A stretch of DNA of 21,722 nucleotides from a virus (taxonomy: Duplodnaviria; Heunggongvirae; Uroviricota; Caudoviricetes), in IMG/VR virus record IMGVR_UViG_2778261217_000005; one strand, given 5' to 3'. Each line of letters opens with the position of its first letter. The stretch's first letter is position 1. The notes below the pieces were generated by a model. The model was not told the DNA's origin. It saw only the letters and a list, made by a program, of their open reading frames with translations, and made no database searches. This document shows, piece after piece, positions 7,660 through 19,898 of the stretch. Made by a program: the position numbers and the translations under genes.

Positions 7660-7738
7660 AAGTTCAATGATATTCGCTCTTGAATGTACTGTCAGTTCTG
7701 TTATAGCATGTACTCAAAGTTCACATTGTGAGGGTGAT
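7660..7738. promoter_or_regulatory. Divergent promoter/operator region between repressor and cro-like gene; two ATGTACT copies 24 bp apart (7684-7690, 7708-7714)
   Basis: 79-bp intergenic with TTGAAT and TATAGC hexamers and repeated heptamers. Confidence 0.45.
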
Positions 7739-7993
7739 ATGAACCAGAAAACACTTGAAGATGTAATCAAAACTGTTCGCGTTTCTGTTGTGGCCGACGT
7801 TTGTGGTGTCAGCCAAAGAGCAATCTACAAATGGATGGATAACGGAAAATTGCCTCGCACAGAATATACCGGCGAAACAAATTACGCTGAAAAAATCGCT
7901 CATGCATCAAACGGATTATTTTCTGCCGATGTAATTTTAACTATTGGCAGAAATAAAACTACTACGAAAAAGCTGATGGGAGTTGATTCATGA
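7739..7993 (+). CDS. ydaS: Cro-like HTH protein YdaS-like (84 aa from internal ATG)
   Basis: MNQKTLEDVIKTVRVSVVADVCGVSQRAIYKWMDNGKLP HTH; GAGGGTGAT SD. The longer ORF start at 7667 would lie 8 nt from the racR start and is unlikely. Confidence 0.65.
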   Translation: MNQKTLEDVIKTVRVSVVADVCGVSQRAIYKWMDNGKLPRTEYTGETNYAEKIAHASNGLFSADVILTIGRNKTTTKKLMGVDS

Positions 7994-8412
7994 AAATCAA
8001 GCATGAGCACATCGAGTCAGTGTTGTTAGCCCTGGCAGCCGAAAAAGGGCAGGCATGGGTAGCCAATGCCATTACTGAAGAATATCTGCGCCAGGGGGGC
8101 GGCGAATTGCCCCTGGTACCAGGCAAGGACTGGAATAATCAGCAGAACATCTATCACCGTTGGTTAAAAGGTGAAACGGAAGCGCAAAGGGAAAAAATTC
8201 AGAAACTGATCCCTGCAATTCTGGCAATCCTTCCGCGCGAGCTGCGTCACCGACTCTGCATCTTCGATACCCTGGAACGCCGTGCATTACTGGCGGCGCA
8301 GGAAGCGTTAAGTACGGCAATTGATGCGCATGATGATGCAGTCCAGGCCGTTTACCGGAAAGCGCATTTCAGCGGCGGCGGGTCTTCCGACGATTCTGTC
8401 ATTGTTCATTAA
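7990..8412 (+). CDS. ydaT: YdaT-like protein (140 aa), CII-like position
   Basis: MKIKHEHIESVLLALAAEKGQAWV...; its ATG overlaps the ydaS stop (ATGA). Confidence 0.75.
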   Translation: MKIKHEHIESVLLALAAEKGQAWVANAITEEYLRQGGGELPLVPGKDWNNQQNIYHRWLKGETEAQREKIQKLIPAILAILPRELRHRLCIFDTLERRALLAAQEALSTAIDAHDDAVQAVYRKAHFSGGGSSDDSVIVH

Positions 8413-8424
8413 GCAAAAGTTTCC

Positions 8425-9282
8425 ATGCTGTTTGTGCTTATTCTAAGCCACCGGGCAGCATCATACGGGGCAATTATGGCCGCATTACCATACATGCAAC
8501 TGTACATAGCTGATTACCTGGCTGACACCATGCATTTGTCAGCAGAGGAGCATGGCGCGTATTTGTTGCTGATGTTCAATTACTGGCAAACAGGAAAGCC
8601 AATACCTAAAAACAGGCTGGCAAAAATTGCCCGTCTGACTAACGAGCGATGGGCTGATGTTGAACCATCCTTGCAGGAGTTTTTTTGCGATAACGGCGTG
8701 GAATGGGTGCATCTTCGGATTGAGGAAGATCTGGCATCAGTCAGGGAAAAATTAACCAAAAAATCAGCCGCAGGAAAAGCCTCTGTTCAGGCCAGAAGAA
8801 GCAGAAAGGAAGCAGATGTTCAAACAAAACAAGAGAGAAATTTAACAGGTGTTCAAACAGATGTTGAAGTGGTGTTTGAACATGATGTCAACACAAAGGC
8901 AACTAATAAAGATACAGATAAAGATCTAAAAACAGATCCCCCCCTAAATCCCCCCCGGGGGAATCGAGGTGTCAAAAAGTTTGACCCTCTGGATATTGCT
9001 TTGCCGAACTGGATTTCTGTCTCGCTTTGGCGTGAGTGGGTTGAATTTCGCCAGGCATTGCGTAAACCGATTCGAACGGAGCAGGGCGCTAACGGGGCGA
9101 TACGGGAGCTGGAAAAATTCCGCCAGCAGGGTTTTTCACCTGAGCAGGTGATTCGACACAGCATCGCCAACGAATACCAGGGCTTGTTCGCGCCGAAAGG
9201 TGTTCGCCCTGAGACGTTACTCCGACGGGTTAACACTGTTTCGTTACCGGACAGTGCGATCCCGCCAGGCTTCAGGGGGTAA
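8425..9282 (+). CDS. ydaU: Replication protein YdaU-like (DUF1376-type), 285 aa
   Basis: Position upstream of DnaC-like gene; matches recalled YdaU; start not certain (no SD at 8425). Confidence 0.7.
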   Translation: MLFVLILSHRAASYGAIMAALPYMQLYIADYLADTMHLSAEEHGAYLLLMFNYWQTGKPIPKNRLAKIARLTNERWADVEPSLQEFFCDNGVEWVHLRIEEDLASVREKLTKKSAAGKASVQARRSRKEADVQTKQERNLTGVQTDVEVVFEHDVNTKATNKDTDKDLKTDPPLNPPRGNRGVKKFDPLDIALPNWISVSLWREWVEFRQALRKPIRTEQGANGAIRELEKFRQQGFSPEQVIRHSIANEYQGLFAPKGVRPETLLRRVNTVSLPDSAIPPGFRG

Positions 9283-9288
9283 CTGACC

Positions 9289-10035
9289 ATGAAAAATATT
9301 GCGACAGGCGGCGTTCTTGAACGTATCCGCAGACTGGCCCCGTCACATGTAACCGCGCCATTCAAGACGGTGGCGGAGTGGCGTGAGTGGCAACTTTCCG
9401 AAGGCCAGAAACGTTGTGAGGAGATCAACCGTCAGAATCGTCAGTTGCGGGTGGAAAAAATTCTGAATCGCTCTGGCATCCAGCCATTGCACCGCAAATG
9501 CTCGTTTTCGAATTACCAGGTGCAGAACGACGGTCAGCGATACGCGTTGAGCCAGGCGAAATTCATCGCCGATGAACTGATGGTCGGGTGTACAAATTTT
9601 GCGTTCAGTGGAAAACCTGGTACCGGGAAGAACCATTTAGCGGCAGCTATCGGGAATCGCCTGCTGAAAGATGGCCAGACAGTGATAGTGGTTACTGTGG
9701 CTGATGTTATGAGTGCCCTGCATGCCAGCTATGACGACGGGCAGTCAGGCGAAAAATTTTTGCGGGAACTGTGCGAAGTGGATCTGCTGGTTCTTGATGA
9801 AATTGGCATTCAGCGCGAGACAAAAAACGAGCAGGTGGTGCTGCACCAGATTGTTGATCGCCGGACAGCGTCGATGCGCAGCGTGGGGATGCTGACAAAC
9901 CTGAACTATGAGGCCATGAAAACATTGCTCGGCGAGAGGATTATGGATCGCATGACCATGAACGGCGGGCGATGGGTGAATTTTAACTGGGAGAGCTGGC
10001 GTCCGAATGTCGTCCAGCCAGGAATTGCGAAGTGA
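9289..10035 (+). CDS. ydaV: DnaC/IstB-like AAA+ helicase loader (248 aa)
   Basis: Walker [11 protein letters not shown], Walker B LLVLDEIG; AGGGGG SD. Confidence 0.85.
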
Positions 10036-10057
10036 TTTTTACCGGGAGGAAATTTTA

Positions 10058-10810
10058 ATGGAGACTGTTTTTGACGCACTGAAAGCGATGGGAAAAGCCA
10101 CATCGGTAGAACTGGCAACGCGACTTGATATCAGTCGTGAAGAAGTGCTGAACGAGCTGTGGGAACTGAAAAAGGCTGGCTTCGTTGATAAAAGCGTATA
10201 CACCTGGCGTGTAGCTGATAACAACGTTCAGCAGGAGCAGGCAGAACTGCCGGAGGAAACCACCACGGCAACAGTCGCGAAAATTTCGGAGAGCGATTTA
10301 ACAGCGACGATTGAGCAACGTGGACCACAAACGGCGGATGAACTGGCTACGCTGTTCGGTACCACATCCCGCAAAGTGGCTTCAACGCTGGCAATGGCAA
10401 TCAGCAAAGGTCGTCTGATTCGCGTTAATCAGAACGGTAAATTTCGTTACTGCATGCCGGGCGGTAATTTACCAGCAGAGCCGAAAGTTGAATCGGTAGC
10501 GGAAACCGATGGTAAAGCCTTTCCTCAGCCAGCCGATGTTGCGTTACCAGTACAGGAAGCGGCAACACAGGAAGATATTAAAACAGAAACTGTGGCGGAC
10601 ATTGTGCAGTCGCTGCCATCGTTTACCGAAACGCGGGCGGATGACCTGATTTTACCATCGCTGCTCATGGCAAACCGTGAGCTGCGTCGGGCGAAAAATC
10701 ATGTCCAGAAGTGGGAGCGTGTCTGCGCCGCGCTGCGGGAGCTGAACAAGTACCGGGATATTGTTCGACAGATTGTCGATTCCCCCAGTCGTATTGTGTC
10801 GGAAAAGTGA
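10058..10810 (+). CDS. YdaW-like protein with N-terminal winged-helix-like region (250 aa from internal ATG)
   Basis: Start [30 protein letters not shown] after GGAGG SD; longer ORF would overlap ydaV. Confidence 0.6.
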
Positions 10811-10825
10811 TTGCCGGAGGCGCTT

Positions 10826-11080
10826 ATGGCAAAAGTTTTTACACAGGAAGAGCGTGAAAAAATTAAGGAGCAGGTTGTTGAGCTGGTACGCCAGAGTGGG
10901 CGCGAGACGTTAAGGCAACTGGAGGCCAAGACAGGTGCGACAAGATATCTGATGAGCATTCTTGCCAGAGAGTTGGTTGCCAGTGGCGATGTATACAACT
11001 CTGGCTATGGGTTATTTCCCTCTGAACAGGCTCGTAAGGACTGGAAAAACGCCCGCAAAAAATATCCAGGGCAAAGGTGA
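10826..11080 (+). CDS. Hypothetical small protein (84 aa)
   Basis: Start MAKVFTQEEREKIKEQ with GGAGG SD; function unknown. Confidence 0.45.
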   Translation: MAKVFTQEEREKIKEQVVELVRQSGRETLRQLEAKTGATRYLMSILARELVASGDVYNSGYGLFPSEQARKDWKNARKKYPGQR

Positions 11081-11247
11081 AAAAAACGGTTGTGGTTGCT
11101 CCTGACCTTATCTGGTCATTACCAGACAGAGAAATACGCCGCTATGACGGGCGTCTGAATATAATCTGTAGCGAGTGCCGTAAGAGCGAAGTTATGAAGC
11201 GTGTACTGATGTTTTATCGAGGAAGTATCCAGGAATTTATTCGGTAA
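11077..11247 (+). CDS. Candidate small ORF (56 aa, GTG start) coupled to upstream stop (GTGA)
   Basis: Hand-translated VKKTVVVAPDLIWSLPDREIRRYDGRLNIICSECRKSEVMKRVLMFYRGSIQEFIR; one CxxC; weak SD. Confidence 0.25.
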   Translation: MKKTVVVAPDLIWSLPDREIRRYDGRLNIICSECRKSEVMKRVLMFYRGSIQEFIR

Positions 11248-11383
11248 GCAAAATCAAAATGTAATCGCTCAAGTTTAAGTTGGTGTATCTACGGCGCAGA
11301 GCCATCGCCTCATCTGGCACTGCGCTAAAATCAAATTTAGTTCCACTCTTTATTTCGTATCTGCTAAAACGCTACATAAGATT

Positions 11384-11656
11384 TTACTTTTTTAAAGAAT
11401 AAGGGAATATGTGCACCATATTGGAGGCTAGTGGATATATTCCTATGCTACGAGTTGTCTTTTTTAGTTGATCTATGCTTGCTTCTTTATCGGGAGCCCG
11501 GCCTCCCCACACTGTAACTCCCTCAGGTATATCGATTGGGCGACTTTTGTTTTCATCTGTGATTTCAATAGTTTCTCCATTGTTAAGCGTAATAATCAAC
11601 GATGACACGTCCAGGTGTTGTGTATTCCCATTTTTATTTTTAATGTCTATTTTCAT
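11384..11656 (-). CDS. Hypothetical protein (90 aa) in AT-rich island
   Basis: ORF with balanced charged composition; no SD; no recognised motif. Confidence 0.3.
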   Translation of the reverse strand: MKIDIKNKNGNTQHLDVSSLIITLNNGETIEITDENKSRPIDIPEGVTVWGGRAPDKEASIDQLKKTTRSIGIYPLASNMVHIFPYSLKK

Positions 11657-11813
11657 GGCTATTTCATTATATGTTATCTGTGCTGGAGTAATAAGTTTAC
11701 GGTATTAAGAAGCATTTTGACGAAACAATCAACTGACTTATCAGCTAAGGTGGCATTGTAATGCGATCTGATTGGTATCATCAGGACGCTGTTCAAAAAA
11801 GGGGTATTAGTTG

Positions 11814-11842
11814 ATCTTGAAATCTTGCTCAAAATATGTAGC
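11814..11842. repeat. Direct-repeat copy A (ATCTTGAAAT ... GCTCAAAATA ... TGTAGC) upstream of queH-like gene
   Basis: Shares 10-mer, 9-mer and 6-mer blocks with copy B at 12710-12756. Confidence 0.35.
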
Positions 11843-11926
11843 CTCTTGTTTAACTGCCAACTTTTTGGGGCAGTACACTATGATGCTACACAACTTGCAA
11901 GTTTCATTACCCCGACGTAAACATTT

Positions 11927-12595
11927 ATGACAGTTGCTGATTTCAAACGTCCTAAGTTGGAGCTCCCAAACGGGGCAAACAAACTACTATTACACTCTTG
12001 TTGTGCACCATGTTCCGGTGAAGTGATGGAGGCTCTTCAGGCCTCAGGAATCGACTACACCATCTTCTTCTATAATCCGAACATTCATCCTCAGAAAGAG
12101 TATTTGATTCGTAAGAATGAGAATATTCGATTTGCTGAACAACATGGTGTCCCGTTTATCGATGCTGATTACGACACTGACAACTGGTTTGAGCGAGCCA
12201 AAGGAATGGAATGGGAGCCAGAACGTGGGAGGCGTTGTACTATGTGTTTTGACATGCGTTTTGAACGGACGGCGCTGTACGCCGCTGAAAATGGTTTCAG
12301 TGTGATCAGCAGTTCACTGGGCATTTCACGCTGGAAAAATATGCAGCAGGTTAACGACAGCGGACGGCGAGCTGTCGCACATTATCCGGGCATGGTGTAC
12401 TGGGATTATAACTGGCGCAAGCAGGGAGGCTCGTCCCGCATGATTGAAATCAGCAAACGCGAACAATTCTATCAGCAGGAATATTGTGGTTGCGTGTATT
12501 CACTTCGCGATACCAATTTACACCGCAAATCCCAGGGACGCCCTCTTATCAAAATTGGTCAACTCCACTACGGTAAAGAAGAAGGGCAGGAATGA
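11927..12595 (+). CDS. queH: QueH-like epoxyqueuosine reductase (DUF208 family), 222 aa
   Basis: Motifs [19 protein letters not shown] and QEYCGCVYS match my recollection of the DUF208/QueH Cys pattern. Confidence 0.65.
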
Positions 12596-12709
12596 TTTTT
12601 ACATTACGTCAACAGAGTGTCACAACGTTTCTATATATGGTATGCCGACCGTAATTTTCGAATCATCATGCCTAATAGGTAGGTCACCTATGCCAGCAAT
12701 GACCTGCTC

Positions 12710-12756
12710 ATCTTGAAATTAGCAGAAATCTTGTAGCTATGATGTAGCTCAAAATA
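12710..12756. repeat. Direct-repeat copy B downstream of queH-like gene
   Basis: ATCTTGAAAT, GAAATCTTG, TGTAGC (x2), GCTCAAAATA blocks shared with copy A. Confidence 0.35.
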
Positions 12757-12904
12757 GTTTTTCATTCTTTTACCTGATGTCTGTTCCTGGCTGAAAACAG
12801 ACTGTATTATTTGATTACGCACCACTGACACTTGTGTATTGAAGTAGTGAGTACAAAGCCACATATTTATCAGTGTATGTATACGTCAAAAACAGGAGAT
12901 TGTT

Positions 12905-12994
12905 GTGCTGGTTCTGAAGTGTGCGTTAGCAATAGTGGCTGTGGTGGCAATTTATTGCCTTGTTGTTGTTCTTATGGAGCGACTTTCTGATTGA
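12905..12994 (+). CDS. Candidate 29-aa hydrophobic single-helix peptide (toxin-like or small membrane protein)
   Basis: AGGAG SD 6 nt upstream of GTG; hand-translated VLVLKCALAIVAVVAIYCLVVVLMERLSD; hydrophobic core with charged C-terminus. Confidence 0.3.
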   Translation: MLVLKCALAIVAVVAIYCLVVVLMERLSD

Positions 12995-13206
12995 TTACAT
13001 ACTGGCTAAAAAAAGCGTTTGCCTGGCTTATCTTTGTCCGGCAAGGTGCGCTCATTAATCTGAAGTAAATTTATTTCTTAAGTATTCAGATTACTTCTTA
13101 TGGTCGAAGTCTCCTGGCAATGTAGAACCAAAATATTTACAAAAACGAGACCCGTCGAGGATAGCTCTGCCGGGTCTGACTGTTAAAGTATTTTTAATAT
13201 GATCAT

Positions 13207-13545
13207 CTATTTTTTGGTGCTATAGACTTTTTCGCCTGAGAAGTCTGGAGCGACCCAAAAGTTAATATTAAACTGAGCATCATCGCTTAGTTCAACACGG
13301 TGCCAGTATTGTGGTGGGCTTGTTGCAAAAGAGCCAGCATTAATAACTACTTTTATCTCTGGTTCAGTAGTATTCTCATCAGCAAAACCATAATATGTTA
13401 CAGTGCCTTCCATTACGCACAACTGCCCAAAAACACCTGCTGCTGTATTATGATGTGTTAATAATGCTGAAGGTACGTTCTCTTTTGTGAAGAACGGAGT
13501 TGAGCGTTTGATTACCCAATCTTTAGGAATTCTCTTGTGTGTCAT
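13207..13545 (-). CDS. Small cupin-like protein (112 aa), possibly DUF1971/TehB-N-like
   Basis: ATG at 13545 preceded by AGGAGGTGG SD; family assignment is a weak recollection. Confidence 0.5.
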   Translation of the reverse strand: MTHKRIPKDWVIKRSTPFFTKENVPSALLTHHNTAAGVFGQLCVMEGTVTYYGFADENTTEPEIKVVINAGSFATSPPQYWHRVELSDDAQFNINFWVAPDFSGEKVYSTKK

Positions 13546-14416
13546 AACCACCTCCTATAAAACATGCATTATAAATGCACCTTTTGAGGAGTTATGTCAA
13601 GCTGTTATGAAACACATAATTGATATGTTGATTAGAGGAGAAGATAGAATAAATATGGTTGTTTTTCGTATAACTACTTGTTTTTCTTTTGGTTTATGCA
13701 TTCTGTGTGTTAGGAATAAGTTATTAAAGTTTAATCAAGAAATCTCGATGTATTCCACATAGATTACTGTTACTGAACCTTATTGTGTGCATTAGTTGTG
13801 TTCTGAAATTTCAGCTTAATTATTTATGATATATTTTTTAACGATAAATGTTTTCCCAGGTAAAAGACAGTTGGGAATAAGATAAGTAATATATCATTAA
13901 TCTTGATTATTTCCAGGGTGCCTTTACTGTGCATATAAATAAATCATATATGCATTAAATAATGTAAAGGCATCCTTTTAGATATATCTTATCAAATATT
14001 AATGACTTGAGTGGGAAACATGACTCCAGCAACTTATCATGTGGCTACTTTATAAAAATAATGCCCATATAAAACAACAAGCGAAAAGGATTACGGATAA
14101 AAAAGGAGCGAGATGTGCAAACTTGTTATTTTCCATGTTTAACCACCTTAAATAATTGATGATGACGGGATGATTGCATCTGTAATGCTTTTATTGAAAT
14201 GTTATGATAAAAAAGAACTTTTTCATAACATTAAAATGTAATTTAGCTAATCGTTTTTAATAATAAGTGTCGTATTTCTATCCTTGTACTAGCTATTTGA
14301 TATGTAGTGTTTGTTCATGCTATGTGGGGCTTTACACCATAGCCAGTTTATTTATACTTTATTCGTCAGCCTGAACAACTGGCATCTGCTGCACTGCGCC
14401 ATAGAGAGATTGAGAA

Positions 14417-15016
14417 ATGGCGCATATACAACTGGTCAAACAAACTTCTTCTGGTTTACTTCTCCCGGCGACGCCGGAGAGTTGTGATTTTCTGCATCAA
14501 ATTAAAATAGGCGAGTGGATACACGCTGATTTTAAGCGTGTGCGTAACTACGCATTCCACAAGCGTTTTTTCAAACTCCTGCAACTGGGATTCGATTACT
14601 GGACTCCGGTTGGTGGGGCGATCACGCCTCGCGAACGAGAACTGCTGTCTGGTTTCGTTGATTACCTGTGCGAATCAGTTGGTCGGGAACACACGCCAGC
14701 CCTGAGTGATGCCGCAGAGCAATATCTGAATACAGTGGCGACACGCAGAACCCGGGATACGGCATTGCTAAAGTCGTTTGAGGCTTTTCGCGAGTGGGTA
14801 ACCATTCAGGCTGGATTTTACACCGAACATTTTTATCCGGACGGTAGCCATGGGCGTCGGGCGAAATCCATCGCTTTTGCGAATATGGACGAAACCGAGT
14901 TTCAGCAGGTTTATAAATCTGTTCTGAATGTGCTGTGGAACTGGATTCTGTTCCGTAAATTTTCCTCTCTGGAACAAGTCGAAAATGTGGCCGCGCAGCT
15001 GCTGGAGTTTGCGTAA
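14417..15016 (+). CDS. DUF1367-family phage protein (YbcN-like), 199 aa
   Basis: Nin-region position; resembles recalled DLP12 YbcN family. Confidence 0.65.
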   Translation: MAHIQLVKQTSSGLLLPATPESCDFLHQIKIGEWIHADFKRVRNYAFHKRFFKLLQLGFDYWTPVGGAITPRERELLSGFVDYLCESVGREHTPALSDAAEQYLNTVATRRTRDTALLKSFEAFREWVTIQAGFYTEHFYPDGSHGRRAKSIAFANMDETEFQQVYKSVLNVLWNWILFRKFSSLEQVENVAAQLLEFA

Positions 15017-15306
15017 TGGTGGATTTACGTAAAGCGGCGCGGGGGCAGATGTGCACCGTCAGAATTCCTGGCTACTGCAATCACGATCCGGAAACGTCTG
15101 TGCTGGCGCATTACCGACTGGCGGGAACGTGCGGAACAGCGACAAAACCACACGATATGCAGGCGGCGATTGCCTGTAGCTCATGCCACGATCTAATCGA
15201 CGGGCGGGTAAAAACCAGCGATTACACCAAAGAAGAATTACGCCTGATGCATGCAGAAGGTGTTTTTCGCACACAAGAAATCTGGAGAAAGGAGGGATAT
15301 TTGTGA
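15016..15306 (+). CDS. DUF1364-family putative nuclease (YbcO-like), 96 aa
   Basis: MVDLRKAARGQMCTVRIPGYCNHDPETSVLAHYRL...ACSSCHD; resembles recalled YbcO; ATG overlaps upstream TAA. Confidence 0.7.
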   Translation: MVDLRKAARGQMCTVRIPGYCNHDPETSVLAHYRLAGTCGTATKPHDMQAAIACSSCHDLIDGRVKTSDYTKEELRLMHAEGVFRTQEIWRKEGYL

Positions 15307-15845
15307 TTTACCCAACGAATACAGGAAAAAGCGGAGAACACCTTCGTCTCGCCACGCTGGAAAGTGTCTGGATTCAGGGCAAACTGCGTATGTGGGGGCG
15401 CTGGTCGTATATTGGCGGTGGCAGGTCAGGAAATATGTTCAATCAGTTGTTGGCATCCAAAAAATTGACGAAAACAGCCATCAATGAAGCCCTGCGCAGA
15501 ATGAAAAAAGCGGGAATAGAGAAAGCTGAGCTGGAAGCGTTTTTGAGAGAGATGATCAACGGCAAGCAAAAGAGCTGGCTGGCGCATTGTACTGATGCAG
15601 AGGCGTTATGTATTGATCGAGTCATAAGTGAGGTGCTGGCAGAGCATCCAGGATTGATTAGCGTCCTTCGGCAACGGTATGAGGGGCGGGGGATGACCAA
15701 ACGCAAAATGGCTGAATTGCTAAATGATGCACACCCAGAGTGGTGTTTTAGCACATGCGAAAAGCGAATTGCTAATTGGTTGGCCGTTGCTGAGTATGCG
15801 CTATACATTCCCATGCGAGAATCATTCGCTCAAAAAACGGCTTGA
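15303..15845 (+). CDS. Putative late antiterminator Q-like protein (180 aa, GTG start)
   Basis: Immediately precedes tRNAs and lysis genes; AGGAGG SD 7 nt before in-frame GTG overlapping ybcO-like stop; the annotated ATG at 15183 would overlap the upstream gene by 124 nt. Confidence 0.5.
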   Translation: MIYPTNTGKSGEHLRLATLESVWIQGKLRMWGRWSYIGGGRSGNMFNQLLASKKLTKTAINEALRRMKKAGIEKAELEAFLREMINGKQKSWLAHCTDAEALCIDRVISEVLAEHPGLISVLRQRYEGRGMTKRKMAELLNDAHPEWCFSTCEKRIANWLAVAEYALYIPMRESFAQKTA

Positions 15846-15870
15846 TTTTTTACGCATAAACTGCTTCAAT
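15842..15870 (+). promoter_or_regulatory. Candidate late promoter (TTGATT -N17- TTCAAT) overlapping Q stop
   Basis: Hexamers read directly; analogous to lambda PR' position; weak -10. Confidence 0.3.
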
Positions 15871-15930
15871 TTTGCTACGCTTCGCAAAGCTGTATCGCGT
15901 GGCGAATCAAGCGCAATTAAACTTTAATAG

Positions 15931-15960
15931 AACCCGCATCGAGCGGGTTTTGTTGTTTTT
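15931..15960 (+). terminator. Rho-independent terminator (AACCCGC-atcga-GCGGGTT + T-run), candidate tR'
   Basis: 7-bp perfect GC-rich stem followed by TTTTGTTGTTTTT. Confidence 0.6.
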
Positions 15961-16197
15961 GTGGTGTGATATAAGAAACGACATTTAATAATTGCCTTCA
16001 AAATAAATTTGTTTATATATTGTCGCGTATATTTTAAATGAAGGTGAAATGTTCACATAAAATAAAAATACATAAATAAATTTGCATAACTTGACGCAAA
16101 GTGTTGTTGCGATTGGAATATTAAATCGTATTATCGAAAACGGTTCTGAGGGGGAACTCTTCTTTGATCGGTGATATCGCTCCCCTGAAGAACCAAT

Positions 16198-16273
<76 letters not shown>

Positions 16274-16276
16274 TAT

Positions 16277-16351
<75 letters not shown>

Positions 16352-16715
16352 GCATTTGAAACAAGTCTTATTGTATTGCGGCACTGGCGTATTTTTTATT
16401 ACGTGGGAGCAGGTTGTTTTGGAAAAGCATTCTGTTCTCTGGCTATGATTTGAGGCCAGGTGTAGCCTCAGTGCTGATTTTTTTACGACAGCAGAATGGT
16501 GCATTGTCGGTGGAGATTTTGTATTTCCTGGCAGGGTCGGTGATGCATCATTCTGGTGTTGTAAAAGCACCACAGAGGTGTTCCTCAGTGCGAGGGTGGT
16601 TTATATAGTGGTTTAGCGGGGAATCACAATATTTGTTGTAGGGACAGATATTTCGGGAGGCACCCGACACCTCGATTTTTATTACAATTAAAATGATTTA
16701 TCTTATACATTGACC

Positions 16716-16741
16716 AACCGCCATATCTGGCGGTTTTTTTT
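16716..16741 (+). terminator. Rho-independent terminator (AACCGCCA-tatc-TGGCGGTT + T8)
   Basis: 8-bp stem followed by eight T; read directly. Confidence 0.6.
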
Positions 16742-17129
16742 ATACCTGCATCAGACAAAAAAAGACACAAGCATCCAGGAATACTCGTGGGACAACGTCC
16801 TTTAGATAGCAATTTGCGAGAGGGTGAAAAGTAGCGCGGTCGTCGGATTAAGACCGCGGGACAAAGTCCATGAAGAATAATAAGTATTGGCCCCCTTCTG
16901 GGGATATGTTCATACTACTAAGCTTCAGAAGTGGTTTAAATCATCAAATTAACCTTAATTTTCGATAAGTCTTATTTCATTTCTTTGCGCCACATCTGGC
17001 GCGCATCAAATAACGCCACGCAAAGGGCATCTGCGGATGCCGGTGCTTTTGACGGGGTGTTTTTTACGGGCCGCTGGTGGCCATTTTTTGTTTCCGTTAC
17101 ACAGCGCCCGCATCTGCGAGGTGGGGGTT

Positions 17130-17345
17130 ATGAAATCCATGGATAAGTTAACAACGGGTGTCGCCTATGGCACCTCCGCAGGCAGTGCTGGCTACTGGTT
17201 TTTACAGCTGCTCGATAAAGTCACGCCCTCACAGTGGGCAGCAATAGGTGTGCTGGGTAGCTTGGTATTTGGCCTGCTGACGTACCTGACAAACCTTTAT
17301 TTCAAGATTAAAGAAGATAAGCGCAAGGCTGCGAGAGGTGAATAA
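17130..17345 (+). CDS. Class II pinholin, phage-21 S-like (71 aa) with dual-start motif MKSM
   Basis: [45 protein letters not shown]... closely resembles recalled S21/EssD; GAGGTGGGGG SD. Confidence 0.85.
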
Positions 17346-18303: not shown

Positions 18304-18440
18304 AATCTTAACTACAATATGATTTATTTTGATGATTGTTTCATAAGGAACAGTGAAGTAAGATCTAAGAGGAGTTAAATTTTATACAGTATAATCATAA
18401 TATTGCAGCAAGGTGGTTATAATTGAAAGAATATTTAGAT

Positions 18441-19898
18441 ATGAATACATCTCATGTAAGAGTTGTTACTCATATGTGTGGGTTCCTGGTTTGGCTCTAT
18501 AGTCTTTCAATGTTGCCACCAATGGTTGTAGCATTGTTTTATAAAGAAAAAAGCCTGTTCGTTTTCTTTATAACCTTCGTTATATTTTTTTGCATTGGTG
18601 GCGGAGCGTGGTATACAACTAAGAAATCTGGCATTCAATTACGTACCCGTGATGGGTTTATTATAATTGTAATGTTTTGGATTTTGTTTTCTGTTATTAG
18701 TGCATTCCCTTTATGGATTGACTCAGAACTTAATTTAACGTTCATTGATGCTCTTTTTGAAGGGGTTTCTGGAATAACAACAACAGGAGCAACTGTAATT
18801 GATGATGTTAGTTCATTACCTCGGGCATATTTGTACTATCGGTCACAGTTAAATTTTATAGGTGGTTTAGGAGTTATTGTTCTGGCGGTTGCTGTATTGC
18901 CATTATTGGGTATTGGTGGTGCAAAGCTTTATCAGTCAGAAATGCCGGGGCCATTTAAGGATGACAAACTCACTCCCCGCCTGGCCGATACGTCACGGAC
19001 ACTGTGGATAACTTATTCTTTATTAGGTATTGCTTGTATTGTCTGTTATAGACTTGCAGGAATGCCTTTGTTTGATGCTATTTGTCACGGGATTTCCACA
19101 GTTTCGCTTGGTGGTTTCTCAACTCATAGCGAGAGTATCGGATATTTTAATAACTATTTGGTTGAGCTGGTGGCTGGTTCTTTTTCCCTGCTATCGGCTT
19201 TCAACTTCACTCTTTGGTATATTGTTATTAGCAGGAAAACGATAAAACCTTTAATCAGAGATATTGAACTTCGTTTCTTTCTGTTAATAGCCTTAGTGGT
19301 GATCATTGTTACCTCTTTCCAGGTCTGGCATATAGGTATGTATGACTTGCATGGAAGTTTTATTCATTCGTTTTTTCTTGCCAGCTCCATGCTCACTGAT
19401 AATGGTTTAGCTACGCAAGATTATGCAAACTGGCCCACGCACACGATAGTGTTTTTGCTGTTGTCAAGTTTCTTTGGGGGATGTATAGGTTCAACTTGTG
19501 GTGGAATTAAGTCACTTCGATTTCTTATACTTTTCAAACAAAGCAAACACGAGATAAATCAGCTTTCTCATCCCAGAGCGTTGTTGAGTGTAAATGTAGG
19601 AGGGAAGATAGTTACAGATCGTGTAATGAGGTCTGTATGGAGTTTCTTTTTTCTTTATACTCTCTTCACGGTGTTTTTTATACTGGTGTTAAATGGTATG
19701 GGATATGATTTTCTTACATCATTTGCAACAGTGGCTGCATGTATTAATAATATGGGATTAGGTTTTGGGGCTACTGCATCGTCATTCGGAGTGCTTAATG
19801 ACATTGCAAAATATTTAATGTGCATAGCTATGATTCTTGGTCGCCTTGAAATTTATCCTGTTATTATATTGTTTTCAGGTTTTTTTTGGCGCTCCTAA
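18441..19898 (+). CDS. trkG: TrkG potassium uptake transporter (485 aa)
   Basis: MNTSHVRVVTHMCGFLVWLYSL...; multi-pass membrane protein with repeated GG selectivity-like motifs; start at ATG 18441 (track ORF begins at upstream TTG). Confidence 0.85.
   Translation: MNTSHVRVVTHMCGFLVWLYSLSMLPPMVVALFYKEKSLFVFFITFVIFFCIGGGAWYTTKKSGIQLRTRDGFIIIVMFWILFSVISAFPLWIDSELNLTFIDALFEGVSGITTTGATVIDDVSSLPRAYLYYRSQLNFIGGLGVIVLAVAVLPLLGIGGAKLYQSEMPGPFKDDKLTPRLADTSRTLWITYSLLGIACIVCYRLAGMPLFDAICHGISTVSLGGFSTHSESIGYFNNYLVELVAGSFSLLSAFNFTLWYIVISRKTIKPLIRDIELRFFLLIALVVIIVTSFQVWHIGMYDLHGSFIHSFFLASSMLTDNGLATQDYANWPTHTIVFLLLSSFFGGCIGSTCGGIKSLRFLILFKQSKHEINQLSHPRALLSVNVGGKIVTDRVMRSVWSFFFLYTLFTVFFILVLNGMGYDFLTSFATVAACINNMGLGFGATASSFGVLNDIAKYLMCIAMILGRLEIYPVIILFSGFFWRS

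Follow-up and report, generated by a model that had tools for sequence, protein, structure and literature searches.

Passenger genes of temperate phages, or morons, and the hot spots that hold them are well represented by bor and lom in lambda, trkG in Rac and the P2/P4 hot spots. In the synthesis of queuosine, the QueG protein of Escherichia coli is a cobalamin-dependent epoxyqueuosine reductase and QueH is its cobalamin-independent analogue; to our knowledge, E. coli makes no cobalamin de novo. The queuosine pathway and its dependence on cobalamin (B12) are summarized in PMC9508795 and PMC5481537. Among the genes controlled by the repressor NsrR, yeaR of strain K-12 is a known target and belongs to the genes most strongly induced by nitrate and nitric oxide (NO) (PMC5320621), and Rodionov et al. 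predicted that the NsrR regulons of enterobacteria include a 'tehB homolog' (PMC1274295). Here we analyse IMG/VR record IMGVR_UViG_2778261217_000005, a DNA stretch of 21,722 nt (the window) from a Rac-like lambdoid prophage of E. coli integrated at or next to ttcA, and in particular its positions 11080-14416, which an earlier note on the same DNA had described as one AT-rich accessory island. Our analysis reveals a hot spot at which lambdoid prophages of the Rac/Qin/phi80 type exchange cargo by recombination, and which here contains three separate cassettes rather than one island. The genes named in the earlier note are all present and lie on both strands, namely queH (+), a gene of the DUF1971/YeaR-like family (-), which the note had called cupin-like, and a 90-aa open reading frame (ORF), orf90 (-). 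The region is probably best explained as a two-slot mosaic cargo hot spot that carries queH and a yeaR-like gene wired to NsrR, and the new point of the analysis is the near-perfect predicted NsrR operator of this phage-borne yeaR-like gene.

The mosaic organization is evident from the distribution of the parts among 5426 complete E. coli genomes searched by megablast. The whole block was found in 43 of them at 99% identity, by comparison with 995 genomes for the queH gene (43 at >=99% identity and 952 at 90-95%) and 458 genomes for the DUF1971 gene with its upstream region. This presence/absence polymorphism, together with the finding of other genes at the same site in sister prophages, bears out the variability that the earlier note had proposed to look for. 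The proposed insertion of a single island is contradicted by the same data, because each cassette occurs without the others: orf90, queH and the DUF1971 gene assort independently, the interval begins and ends in conserved backbone, and we found neither direct or inverted repeats delimiting an element nor mobility genes, an integrase or a transposase flanking any block. The sub-block borders, read from the spread of partial matches and from alignments, further show that the limits 11080 and 14416 are too wide, since the first 168 bp are the tail of the DUF977 gene and the last ~370 bp are backbone, with cargo only between them. In strain IHE3034 the QueH cassette lies directly after DUF977 and before hokD, and in REL606 and the phage HannyBb the QueH block reaches to 13005. 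The queH and DUF1971 genes co-occur in 43 genomes, which does not exceed the ~84 expected under independence; the two are therefore not linked, and a functional link between them was rejected.

Structurally, the region is arranged in the order DUF977, slot A, orf29, slot B, orf28 on the (-) strand, a promoter-like site and the DUF1367-YbcO-Q-like module, where orf29 and orf28 are small ORFs described below. Slot A, from DUF977 to orf29, is occupied in other prophages by NsnABC (PADLOC matches NsnB, 9e-122, and NsnC, 1e-89), by SIR2, DUF4209 and AbiH genes according to RefSeq annotation, or by a gene for a 269-aa hypothetical protein. In the phage vB_EcoS-666R9, which lacks orf29, a BstA-like KilA-N protein (3e-21) is encoded between DUF977 and the DUF1971 cassette. 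The loci with such defence-related cargo include L006 (1-3107, phi80-like prophage in DH5alpha), L095 (491-1450), L097 (1-663) and L008 (3491-4264). Slot B, from orf29 to orf28, contains either hok/sok (hokD), the usual occupant, or the DUF1971 cassette. The pair of small ORFs that brackets the DUF1971 cassette here brackets hokD in most sister prophages. There, ~205 nt separate the end of orf29 from hokD downstream of it, and orf28, which is encoded on the opposite strand, ends ~105 nt beyond hokD.

The base composition agrees with the AT-richness reported in the earlier note for the interval as a whole. The GC content of 11080-14416 is 38.4%, by comparison with 49.7% in the left flank (7667-11079), 49.5% in the right flank (14417-15845) and 46.3% in the rest of the window. 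It is the lowest-GC 3.3-kb stretch of the window, and just 0.9% of all 3337-bp segments have a GC content as low or lower, every one of them overlapping 11080-14416. The composition is uneven within the interval, however: orf90 has 37.7% GC (34% at third codon positions, GC3), the DUF1971 gene 39.8% (GC3 32%) and the intergenic stretch 13546-14416 only 30.7%, whereas queH, with 47.2% (GC3 48%), resembles the flanks, so that the description as AT-rich does not extend to queH itself. The window has further AT-rich patches, among them a second cargo patch, trkG, a known Rac passenger gene at 18423-19898 (+) with 37.6% GC (GC3 32%). Because trkG is AT-rich as well, 11080-14416 is not the sole compositionally foreign segment of the window.

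Predicted regulatory elements accompany the DUF1971 gene. Its ATG is preceded by a Shine-Dalgarno (SD) sequence, GGAGGTGG, at 13548-13555 and by a predicted NsrR operator that begins 38 nt upstream. This operator is the sole match to the ytfE-type NsrR consensus in the window, and no match occurred in 100 shuffles. On a position weight matrix (PWM) built from 26 of the CFT073 NsrR sites in Table 4 of PMC5320621, it scores 25.5 bits, which places it at rank 2 among the 26 CFT073 matrix sites, below ytfE alone. The next-best site in the window reaches 11.7 bits, and when the AT-rich intergenic region was shuffled 300 times the score never rose above 20.4. Sites of >=15 bits precede the ATG in 54 of the 80 loci with an orthologue, nearly always at -38 to -50, by comparison with just 4 of 80 when the remaining ~6 kb of each locus was scanned; nearly all the Enterobacteriaceae loci are among the 54. 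In addition, the DNA homology to the chromosomal orthologue loci extends from 13207 to 13584-13587, that is, over exactly the gene and its operator, and every prophage variant retains the operator, with scores of 19.5-25.5 bits, despite divergent adjacent bases. From the operator score, its conservation and the extent of homology, we infer that gene and operator entered the phage together and that NsrR would keep the gene repressed until nitrosative stress. In the proposed mechanism, a chromosomal yeaR-like DUF1971 gene would have been captured together with its NsrR operator into slot B; in the lysogen, NsrR would repress the gene, NO or nitrosative stress would de-repress it, and a phage passenger gene would thereby be tied into the NO-stress regulon of the host. 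The DUF1971 gene is thus apparently NsrR-controlled, and its NO-induced expression is predicted. For FNR and NarL, sites upstream of the operator were checked by eye and gave poor matches only, with no NarL site identified.

The product of this gene matches PF09313 with 91.8 bits (cut-off 23.1) and was assigned to PHROG 34268. Its matches to Cupin_8 and Cupin_2 stay below threshold. It is ~80% identical to PDB 3DL3 ('TehB', 119 aa; E=3e-59), and its remoter kin include E. coli YeaR (3BB6; E=3e-25) and the TehB N-terminal domain (3M70; E=2e-10). The chromosomes of Kluyvera, Leclercia, Klebsiella, Raoultella, Citrobacter, S. enterica diarizonae and many Vibrionaceae encode orthologues with 75-83% identity, and the gene is also found in the induced phages vB_EcoS-666R9, 673R7 and 613R10.

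The QueH protein matches PF02677 with 221.5 bits (cut-off 23.5), its residues 20-194 covering positions 1-174 of the 175 in the profile, and is alignable to T. maritima QueH (PDB 7LC5) with E=3e-22. The CC, CxxC and CGC cysteines are kept in this alignment, in which the motifs HSCCAPC, RRCTMC and YCGCVYS of the phage protein pair with HVCCAPD, KRCERC and YCGCVFS of 7LC5; we take these cysteines to be the metal cluster ligands of the 7LC5 structure. Intact copies of the ORF occur in 985 genomes and in the free phage HannyBb, and its PHROG family, 3217, is labelled 'unknown function'. By family membership, the most likely role of QueH is the B12-independent completion of queuosine in tRNA-Asp/Asn/His/Tyr: its product would reduce epoxyqueuosine to queuosine in these tRNAs by Fe-S chemistry, and the last step of queuosine synthesis would thereby become cobalamin-independent. 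The orientation of queH is that of early-right transcription. According to a Shewanella preprint (10.64898/2026.03.05.709803), the epoxyqueuosine-to-queuosine step is regulated during phage infection, and for this reason a role in the lysogen and a role in the phage cycle are both plausible. A literature search yielded no publication on QueH of E. coli prophages, nor on the protein accessions. The window also contains tRNA-Thr and tRNA-Gly genes (16198-16348, +) downstream of the Q-like gene; neither tRNA bears queuosine, and hence they have no direct link to QueH.

The two junction ORFs, orf29 and orf28, look like real small genes as judged from their conservation. Their SD, start and stop are intact in 13 of 13 and 10 of 10 loci, respectively. 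For orf29, the ratio of nonsynonymous to synonymous polymorphism (pN/pS) is 0.26 in frame versus 0.65 and 0.86 in the two other frames; the in-frame value of orf28, 0.41, compares with 1.19 and 0.50, which is weaker evidence. The segments carrying them are present in 1889 (35%, orf29) and 1175 (22%, orf28) of the 5426 genomes and are never annotated, so that two widespread small ORFs have been missed by annotation pipelines; orf29 is also present in HannyBb by local tblastn, although a tblastn search of the phage collection gave no match, probably owing to low-complexity filtering. Neither has an NCBIfam or PHROG match, and Pfam at E<=10 was likewise empty. As candidate type I toxins (Hok/Ldr/Ibs-like) they have no family match and no small RNA (sRNA) partner in Rfam, and share with such toxins merely that they are short, hydrophobic and preceded by an SD. 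These two are the SD-preceded mini-ORFs of the earlier note that we would retain, whereas the one at 11077-11247 is not a separate gene and represents the C-terminus of the frameshifted DUF977 gene, as shown by its PF06163 match.

The orf90 product has no Pfam, NCBIfam, PADLOC or PHROG family. Close homologues (n=14) come from Escherichia, Citrobacter and Enterobacter, one being encoded on a chromosome outside any phage context, and a profile search collected 65 cluster representatives, including proteins of 80-110 aa and tandem proteins of 160-210 aa; none of the profile relatives scanned has a Pfam domain. Profile matches reveal a resemblance of residues 16-45 to repeats of giant LapA/BapA-type adhesins. 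An AlphaFold2 model from a 10-sequence alignment was too poor for a fold search (predicted local distance difference test score, pLDDT, 48.8; predicted template modelling score, pTM, 0.31), and a PDB sequence search returned only noise at E>0.1. More generally, PADLOC (PADLOC-DB v2; ORFs >=25 aa), NCBIfam and PHROG searches of nine ORFs of the region, including the mini-ORFs, gave no defence match (PADLOC E<=0.1), and the same PADLOC search was strongly positive for the cargo of sister prophages. The earlier note had considered this the most likely place for any novel cargo function; both main genes fall into known families, and no ORF tested has a PADLOC match.

Table 1 Features of the cargo region and its borders (positions in the window; CDS, coding sequence; MFE, minimum free energy; dG, folding free energy; a point marks features given without strand)
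Feature	Position	Strand	Basis or remarks
DUF977 (LygF / 'Ren-like') gene	10811..11247	+	Backbone; reading frame shifted near 11062, where an A-run has lost 1 bp
orf90 cassette	11248-11877	-	Borders from partial matches
orf90 CDS, 90 aa, without signal peptide	11384-11656	-	GC 37.7%
QueH cassette	11878-12599	+	Borders from IHE3034-type matches
QueH CDS, 222 aa, epoxyqueuosine reductase family (DUF208)	11927-12595	+	PF02677 E=1e-65
Spacer without coding, travels with QueH in REL606/HannyBb-type prophages	12600..12834	.	~80% identity to REL606 and HannyBb
Junction segment with orf29	12835-13005	.	Partial matches, alignments
orf29, 29 aa, hydrophobic, MLVLKCALAIVAVVAIYCLVVVLMERLSD, GTG start, SD CAGGAG	12905..12994	+	In junction segment 12835-13005
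DUF1971/YeaR-like cassette	13006-14048	.	Partial matches, alignments
Terminator-like hairpin (13148-13177) and U-run, downstream of the DUF1971 gene	13140..13177	-	MFE -15 kcal/mol, z=-1.9, then UCGUUUUUG; weak alone
DUF1971/YeaR-like ('TehB family') CDS, 112 aa, ATG at 13545	13207..13545	-	PF09313 E=3e-26
Predicted NsrR operator AAGGTGCATTTATAATGCATGTT, 11-1-11 inverted repeat with embedded TATAAT	13561..13583	-	Consensus and PWM
AT-rich spacer of the DUF1971 cassette, ~460 bp, ~29% GC	13588..14048	.	Without homologue beside chromosomal orthologues
Strong nested hairpin, then UUUU	13915-13976	+	dG -28.2 kcal/mol, z=-5.35
Backbone with orf28 (-)	14049-14416	.	~77% identity to DNA upstream of DUF1367 in phi80-like prophages
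orf28, 28 aa, hydrophobic, MENNKFAHLAPFLSVILFACCFIWALFL, SD AAGGTGG	14050..14136	-	In backbone 14049-14416
10-bp perfect inverted repeat AATGTTATGA / TCATAACATT, 15-nt spacer	14193-14237	.	Backbone, upstream of orf28
Promoter-like TTTACA-16-TATACT, 58 nt upstream of the DUF1367 ATG (14417)	14331..14358	+	10/12 consensus, best in scan

The AT-rich stretch of 871 bp at 13546-14416 contains no long conserved ORF and in this respect agrees with its earlier description as 870 bp of near-noncoding DNA, but it is composite, comprising the operator and ribosome-binding site, the spacer, a hairpin, orf28 and a promoter-like site. Two ORFs at 13487-13762 (91 aa) and 13824-13934 (36 aa) were rejected as genes on account of stop codons in relatives, and a gene at 13597-13701 (34 aa) is doubtful. 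Elsewhere in the interval, the ORF at 12688-12864 (58 aa, -) was likewise rejected, its REL606/HannyBb relatives having a stop codon. The spacer, at whose edge the homology to chromosomal loci ends, has no Rfam match, and because a 57-bp deletion (13856-13912) is found in EC14 and Shigella variants, it is at least partly dispensable. Conservation of the hairpin at 13915-13976 is mixed, with one compensatory pair change and also mismatches across variants; it may be a terminator of rightward transcription before the Q-like module or the 3' end of an sRNA from near 13837. Further downstream, the inverted repeat at 14193-14237, partly kept in phi80-like copies, may serve as an operator or a leader hairpin. 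The promoter-like element at 14331-14358 is invariant in phi80-like, TUM9757 and EC14 copies, whose flanks are only ~77% identical, and this suggests a dedicated promoter of the DUF1367-YbcO-Q-like operon. Across 10800-17200, Rfam at E<=1 gave just the two downstream tRNAs and sub-threshold noise, such as an STnc100-like match at 16548-16745 with 27 bits versus a gathering score of 47.

The surrounding modules were assigned from the annotation of a near-identical locus in strain GF47 (99% identity). Its left part contains, in order, intR, xisR, ralR, recT, recE, kilR, sieB, repressor and Cro-like genes, ydaT, ydaU, ydaV, DUF1627 and DUF977, and the part to the right of the region contains DUF1367, DUF1364 (YbcO), DUF1133 (Q-like), tRNA-Thr, tRNA-Gly, lysis genes and trkG. 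The cargo hence lies where the earlier note had placed it, between the replication and nin/Q modules, with ydaU/ydaV/DUF1627/DUF977 on the left and DUF1367-YbcO-Q-like on the right. In the window, the two halves of the DUF977 gene, 10811-11080 and 11077-11247, each match PF06163, and alignment to the intact genes of GF47 and EC14 reveals a single-base gap. DUF977 is frameshifted and DUF1627 intact here, whereas in GF47 the reverse is found, with DUF1627 frameshifted and DUF977 intact (L001, 10970-11730); the two frameshifts are independent decay events in near-identical prophages.

Other explanations of the region account for part of these observations. A single horizontally acquired AT-rich island, inserted as a unit between the replication and nin/Q modules, would fit the lowest overall GC in the window and the complete block at 99% identity in 43 genomes, but it is very improbable in view of the separate distribution of the parts (995, 458 and 43 genomes), the flank-like GC of queH, the lack of terminal repeats, integrase or transposase, and the conserved backbone at both ends of the interval. 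The cargo might alternatively be largely inert passenger DNA in a decaying prophage, its AT-rich part H-NS-silenced junk and its small ORFs and operator functionless now. The frameshift in DUF977, the deletion of part of the spacer in variants without consequence, the several spurious ORFs and the promoter and terminator counts at shuffle expectation would all be compatible with such decay; yet hundreds to thousands of genomes, as well as inducible phages, carry intact copies of QueH, DUF1971, orf29 and orf28, the small ORFs are under in-frame purifying selection, and the operator retains 19.5-25.5 bits in all variants amid diverging neighbours, which makes inertness quite improbable.

Two further proposals concern the function of the cargo. 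An unrecognized anti-phage defence or counter-defence function could reside in orf90 and/or QueH, the latter for example by altering queuosine in tRNAs targeted by anticodon nucleases. In sister prophages, slot A serves as a hot spot of defence genes (NsnABC, SIR2, AbiH, BstA-like), orf90 has no family match, and the Shewanella preprint reports the epoxyqueuosine-to-queuosine step to be regulated in phage infection. Nevertheless, such hot spots hold non-defence morons too, the enzyme family of QueH is of a housekeeping type and no gene for a partner effector accompanies it, one homologue of orf90 is found in a chromosomal setting related neither to phage nor to defence, and the PADLOC search was negative, so that we consider a defence function unlikely. 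The known use of 7-deazaguanine pathways on DNA by phages (PMC6884629 and PMC10516641) raises the question of whether QueH serves phage DNA modification rather than tRNA. The window and related loci contain no dpdA/tgt-like transglycosylase gene and no queC/D/E or folE (preQ0-synthesis) genes, and epoxyqueuosine in tRNA is the only known QueH substrate; because dpdA and preQ0-synthesis genes are lacking, a role in DNA modification is unlikely, and as an account of the locus it is scarcely credible.

The two-slot mosaic carrying queH and an NsrR-wired yeaR-like gene draws on base composition, gene families, cassette borders, polymorphism, the strength and conservation of the operator and the integrity of the small ORFs, all of which are observed; enzymatic activity, NsrR control, expression in the lysogen and any fitness benefit are what we infer from them. 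Several points weigh against this explanation. Most of the orthologous loci in Vibrionaceae have no NsrR site, a perfect TTGACA does precede the operator but is spaced 21 bp from TATAAT, a poor distance that leaves the -35 element and promoter undefined, and the link of DUF1971/YeaR to protection from NO stress is an association only. Furthermore, no SD can be recognised in front of queH, and apart from a conserved 48-bp leader the gene lacks a predicted promoter; its transcription may be confined to the early-right operon after induction, which would speak for a function in the phage cycle rather than lysogenic conversion. Promoter and terminator scans gave counts equal to shuffle expectation, with no excess of sites, and with its frameshifted DUF977 gene the prophage is partly decayed, so that the cargo could be heading for loss.

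A broader interpretation, which we regard as doubtful when taken as a whole, would combine these elements: prophage queH, present in ~18% of complete E. coli genomes, would serve lysogenic conversion or counter-defence by freeing the maturation of queuosine from its dependence on B12 and BtuB, accompanied by an NsrR-wired yeaR-like gene and genuine small membrane proteins. BtuB is a receptor for phages and colicins. If this held, lysogens could keep tRNA-Asp/Asn/His/Tyr fully modified when B12 is scarce or BtuB is lost, or, alternatively, the phage could use QueH to tune the decoding of its NAU-rich genes after induction; the neighbouring yeaR-like gene would turn on in the NO-rich inflamed gut, and the small membrane ORFs around the hok-or-DUF1971 slot (22-35% of genomes) would be genuine new proteins. 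Independently of this broader interpretation, if the inferred functions of the main reading hold, temperate phages would be spreading genes of host physiology among E. coli of two kinds, a cobalamin-independent route to tRNA queuosine and an NO-responsive gene that arrives with an operator already recognised by the host regulator. In practical terms, the two-slot hot spot, with defence genes or QueH in one slot and hok or DUF1971 in the other, and its junction ORFs provide an anchor for mining lambdoid cargo. The added value of the present analysis lies in the predicted NsrR wiring of the phage yeaR-like gene, the prevalence of prophage QueH and the two-slot layout with unannotated junction ORFs. 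Both main cargo genes come from known families, and current understanding is not overturned.

Our comparison with known systems reveals similarities and differences at each level. Phage QueH resembles the family represented by 7LC5 in its full-length Pfam match and cysteine motifs. It differs in an N-terminal extension of ~17 residues and in being encoded on a temperate phage or prophage of a host that already has the cobalamin-dependent QueG. The DUF1971 protein belongs to the same Pfam family as YeaR of the K-12 yeaR-yoaG operon, which is repressed by NsrR and activated by NarL. By comparison, the phage gene falls into the 3DL3 subfamily, chromosomal in Kluyvera, Klebsiella and Citrobacter, is phage-borne and lacks a yoaG partner, and has a much shorter 5' leader, with the operator 38 nt from the ATG. 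The K-12 yeaR operator, AAATGGTATTTAAAATGCAAATT, and the phage operator, AAGGTGCATTTATAATGCATGTT, share the same 11-1-11 geometry with a -10-like hexamer at the centre. Like hok/sok (hokD) of Qin/phi80-like prophages, the DUF1971 cassette is inserted between orf29 and orf28, whereas the window contains no hok, mok or sok, the DUF1971 cassette being in the slot instead. In common with lambdoid morons and prophage cargo hot spots, the region has variable passengers at a fixed site between conserved modules, a GC content lower than that of the backbone, genes in both orientations, presence/absence polymorphism and defence genes at the site in sister prophages. A classical moron has its own promoter and terminator, whereas queH and orf90 show nothing beyond chance-level consensus hits; for the DUF1971 gene, the operator with its embedded TATAAT and the weak terminator-like hairpin are candidates for such elements. 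The region is thus instructive but essentially ordinary phage "moron" cargo, distinguished from other lambdoid morons by two adjacent slots that are parted by conserved small ORFs.

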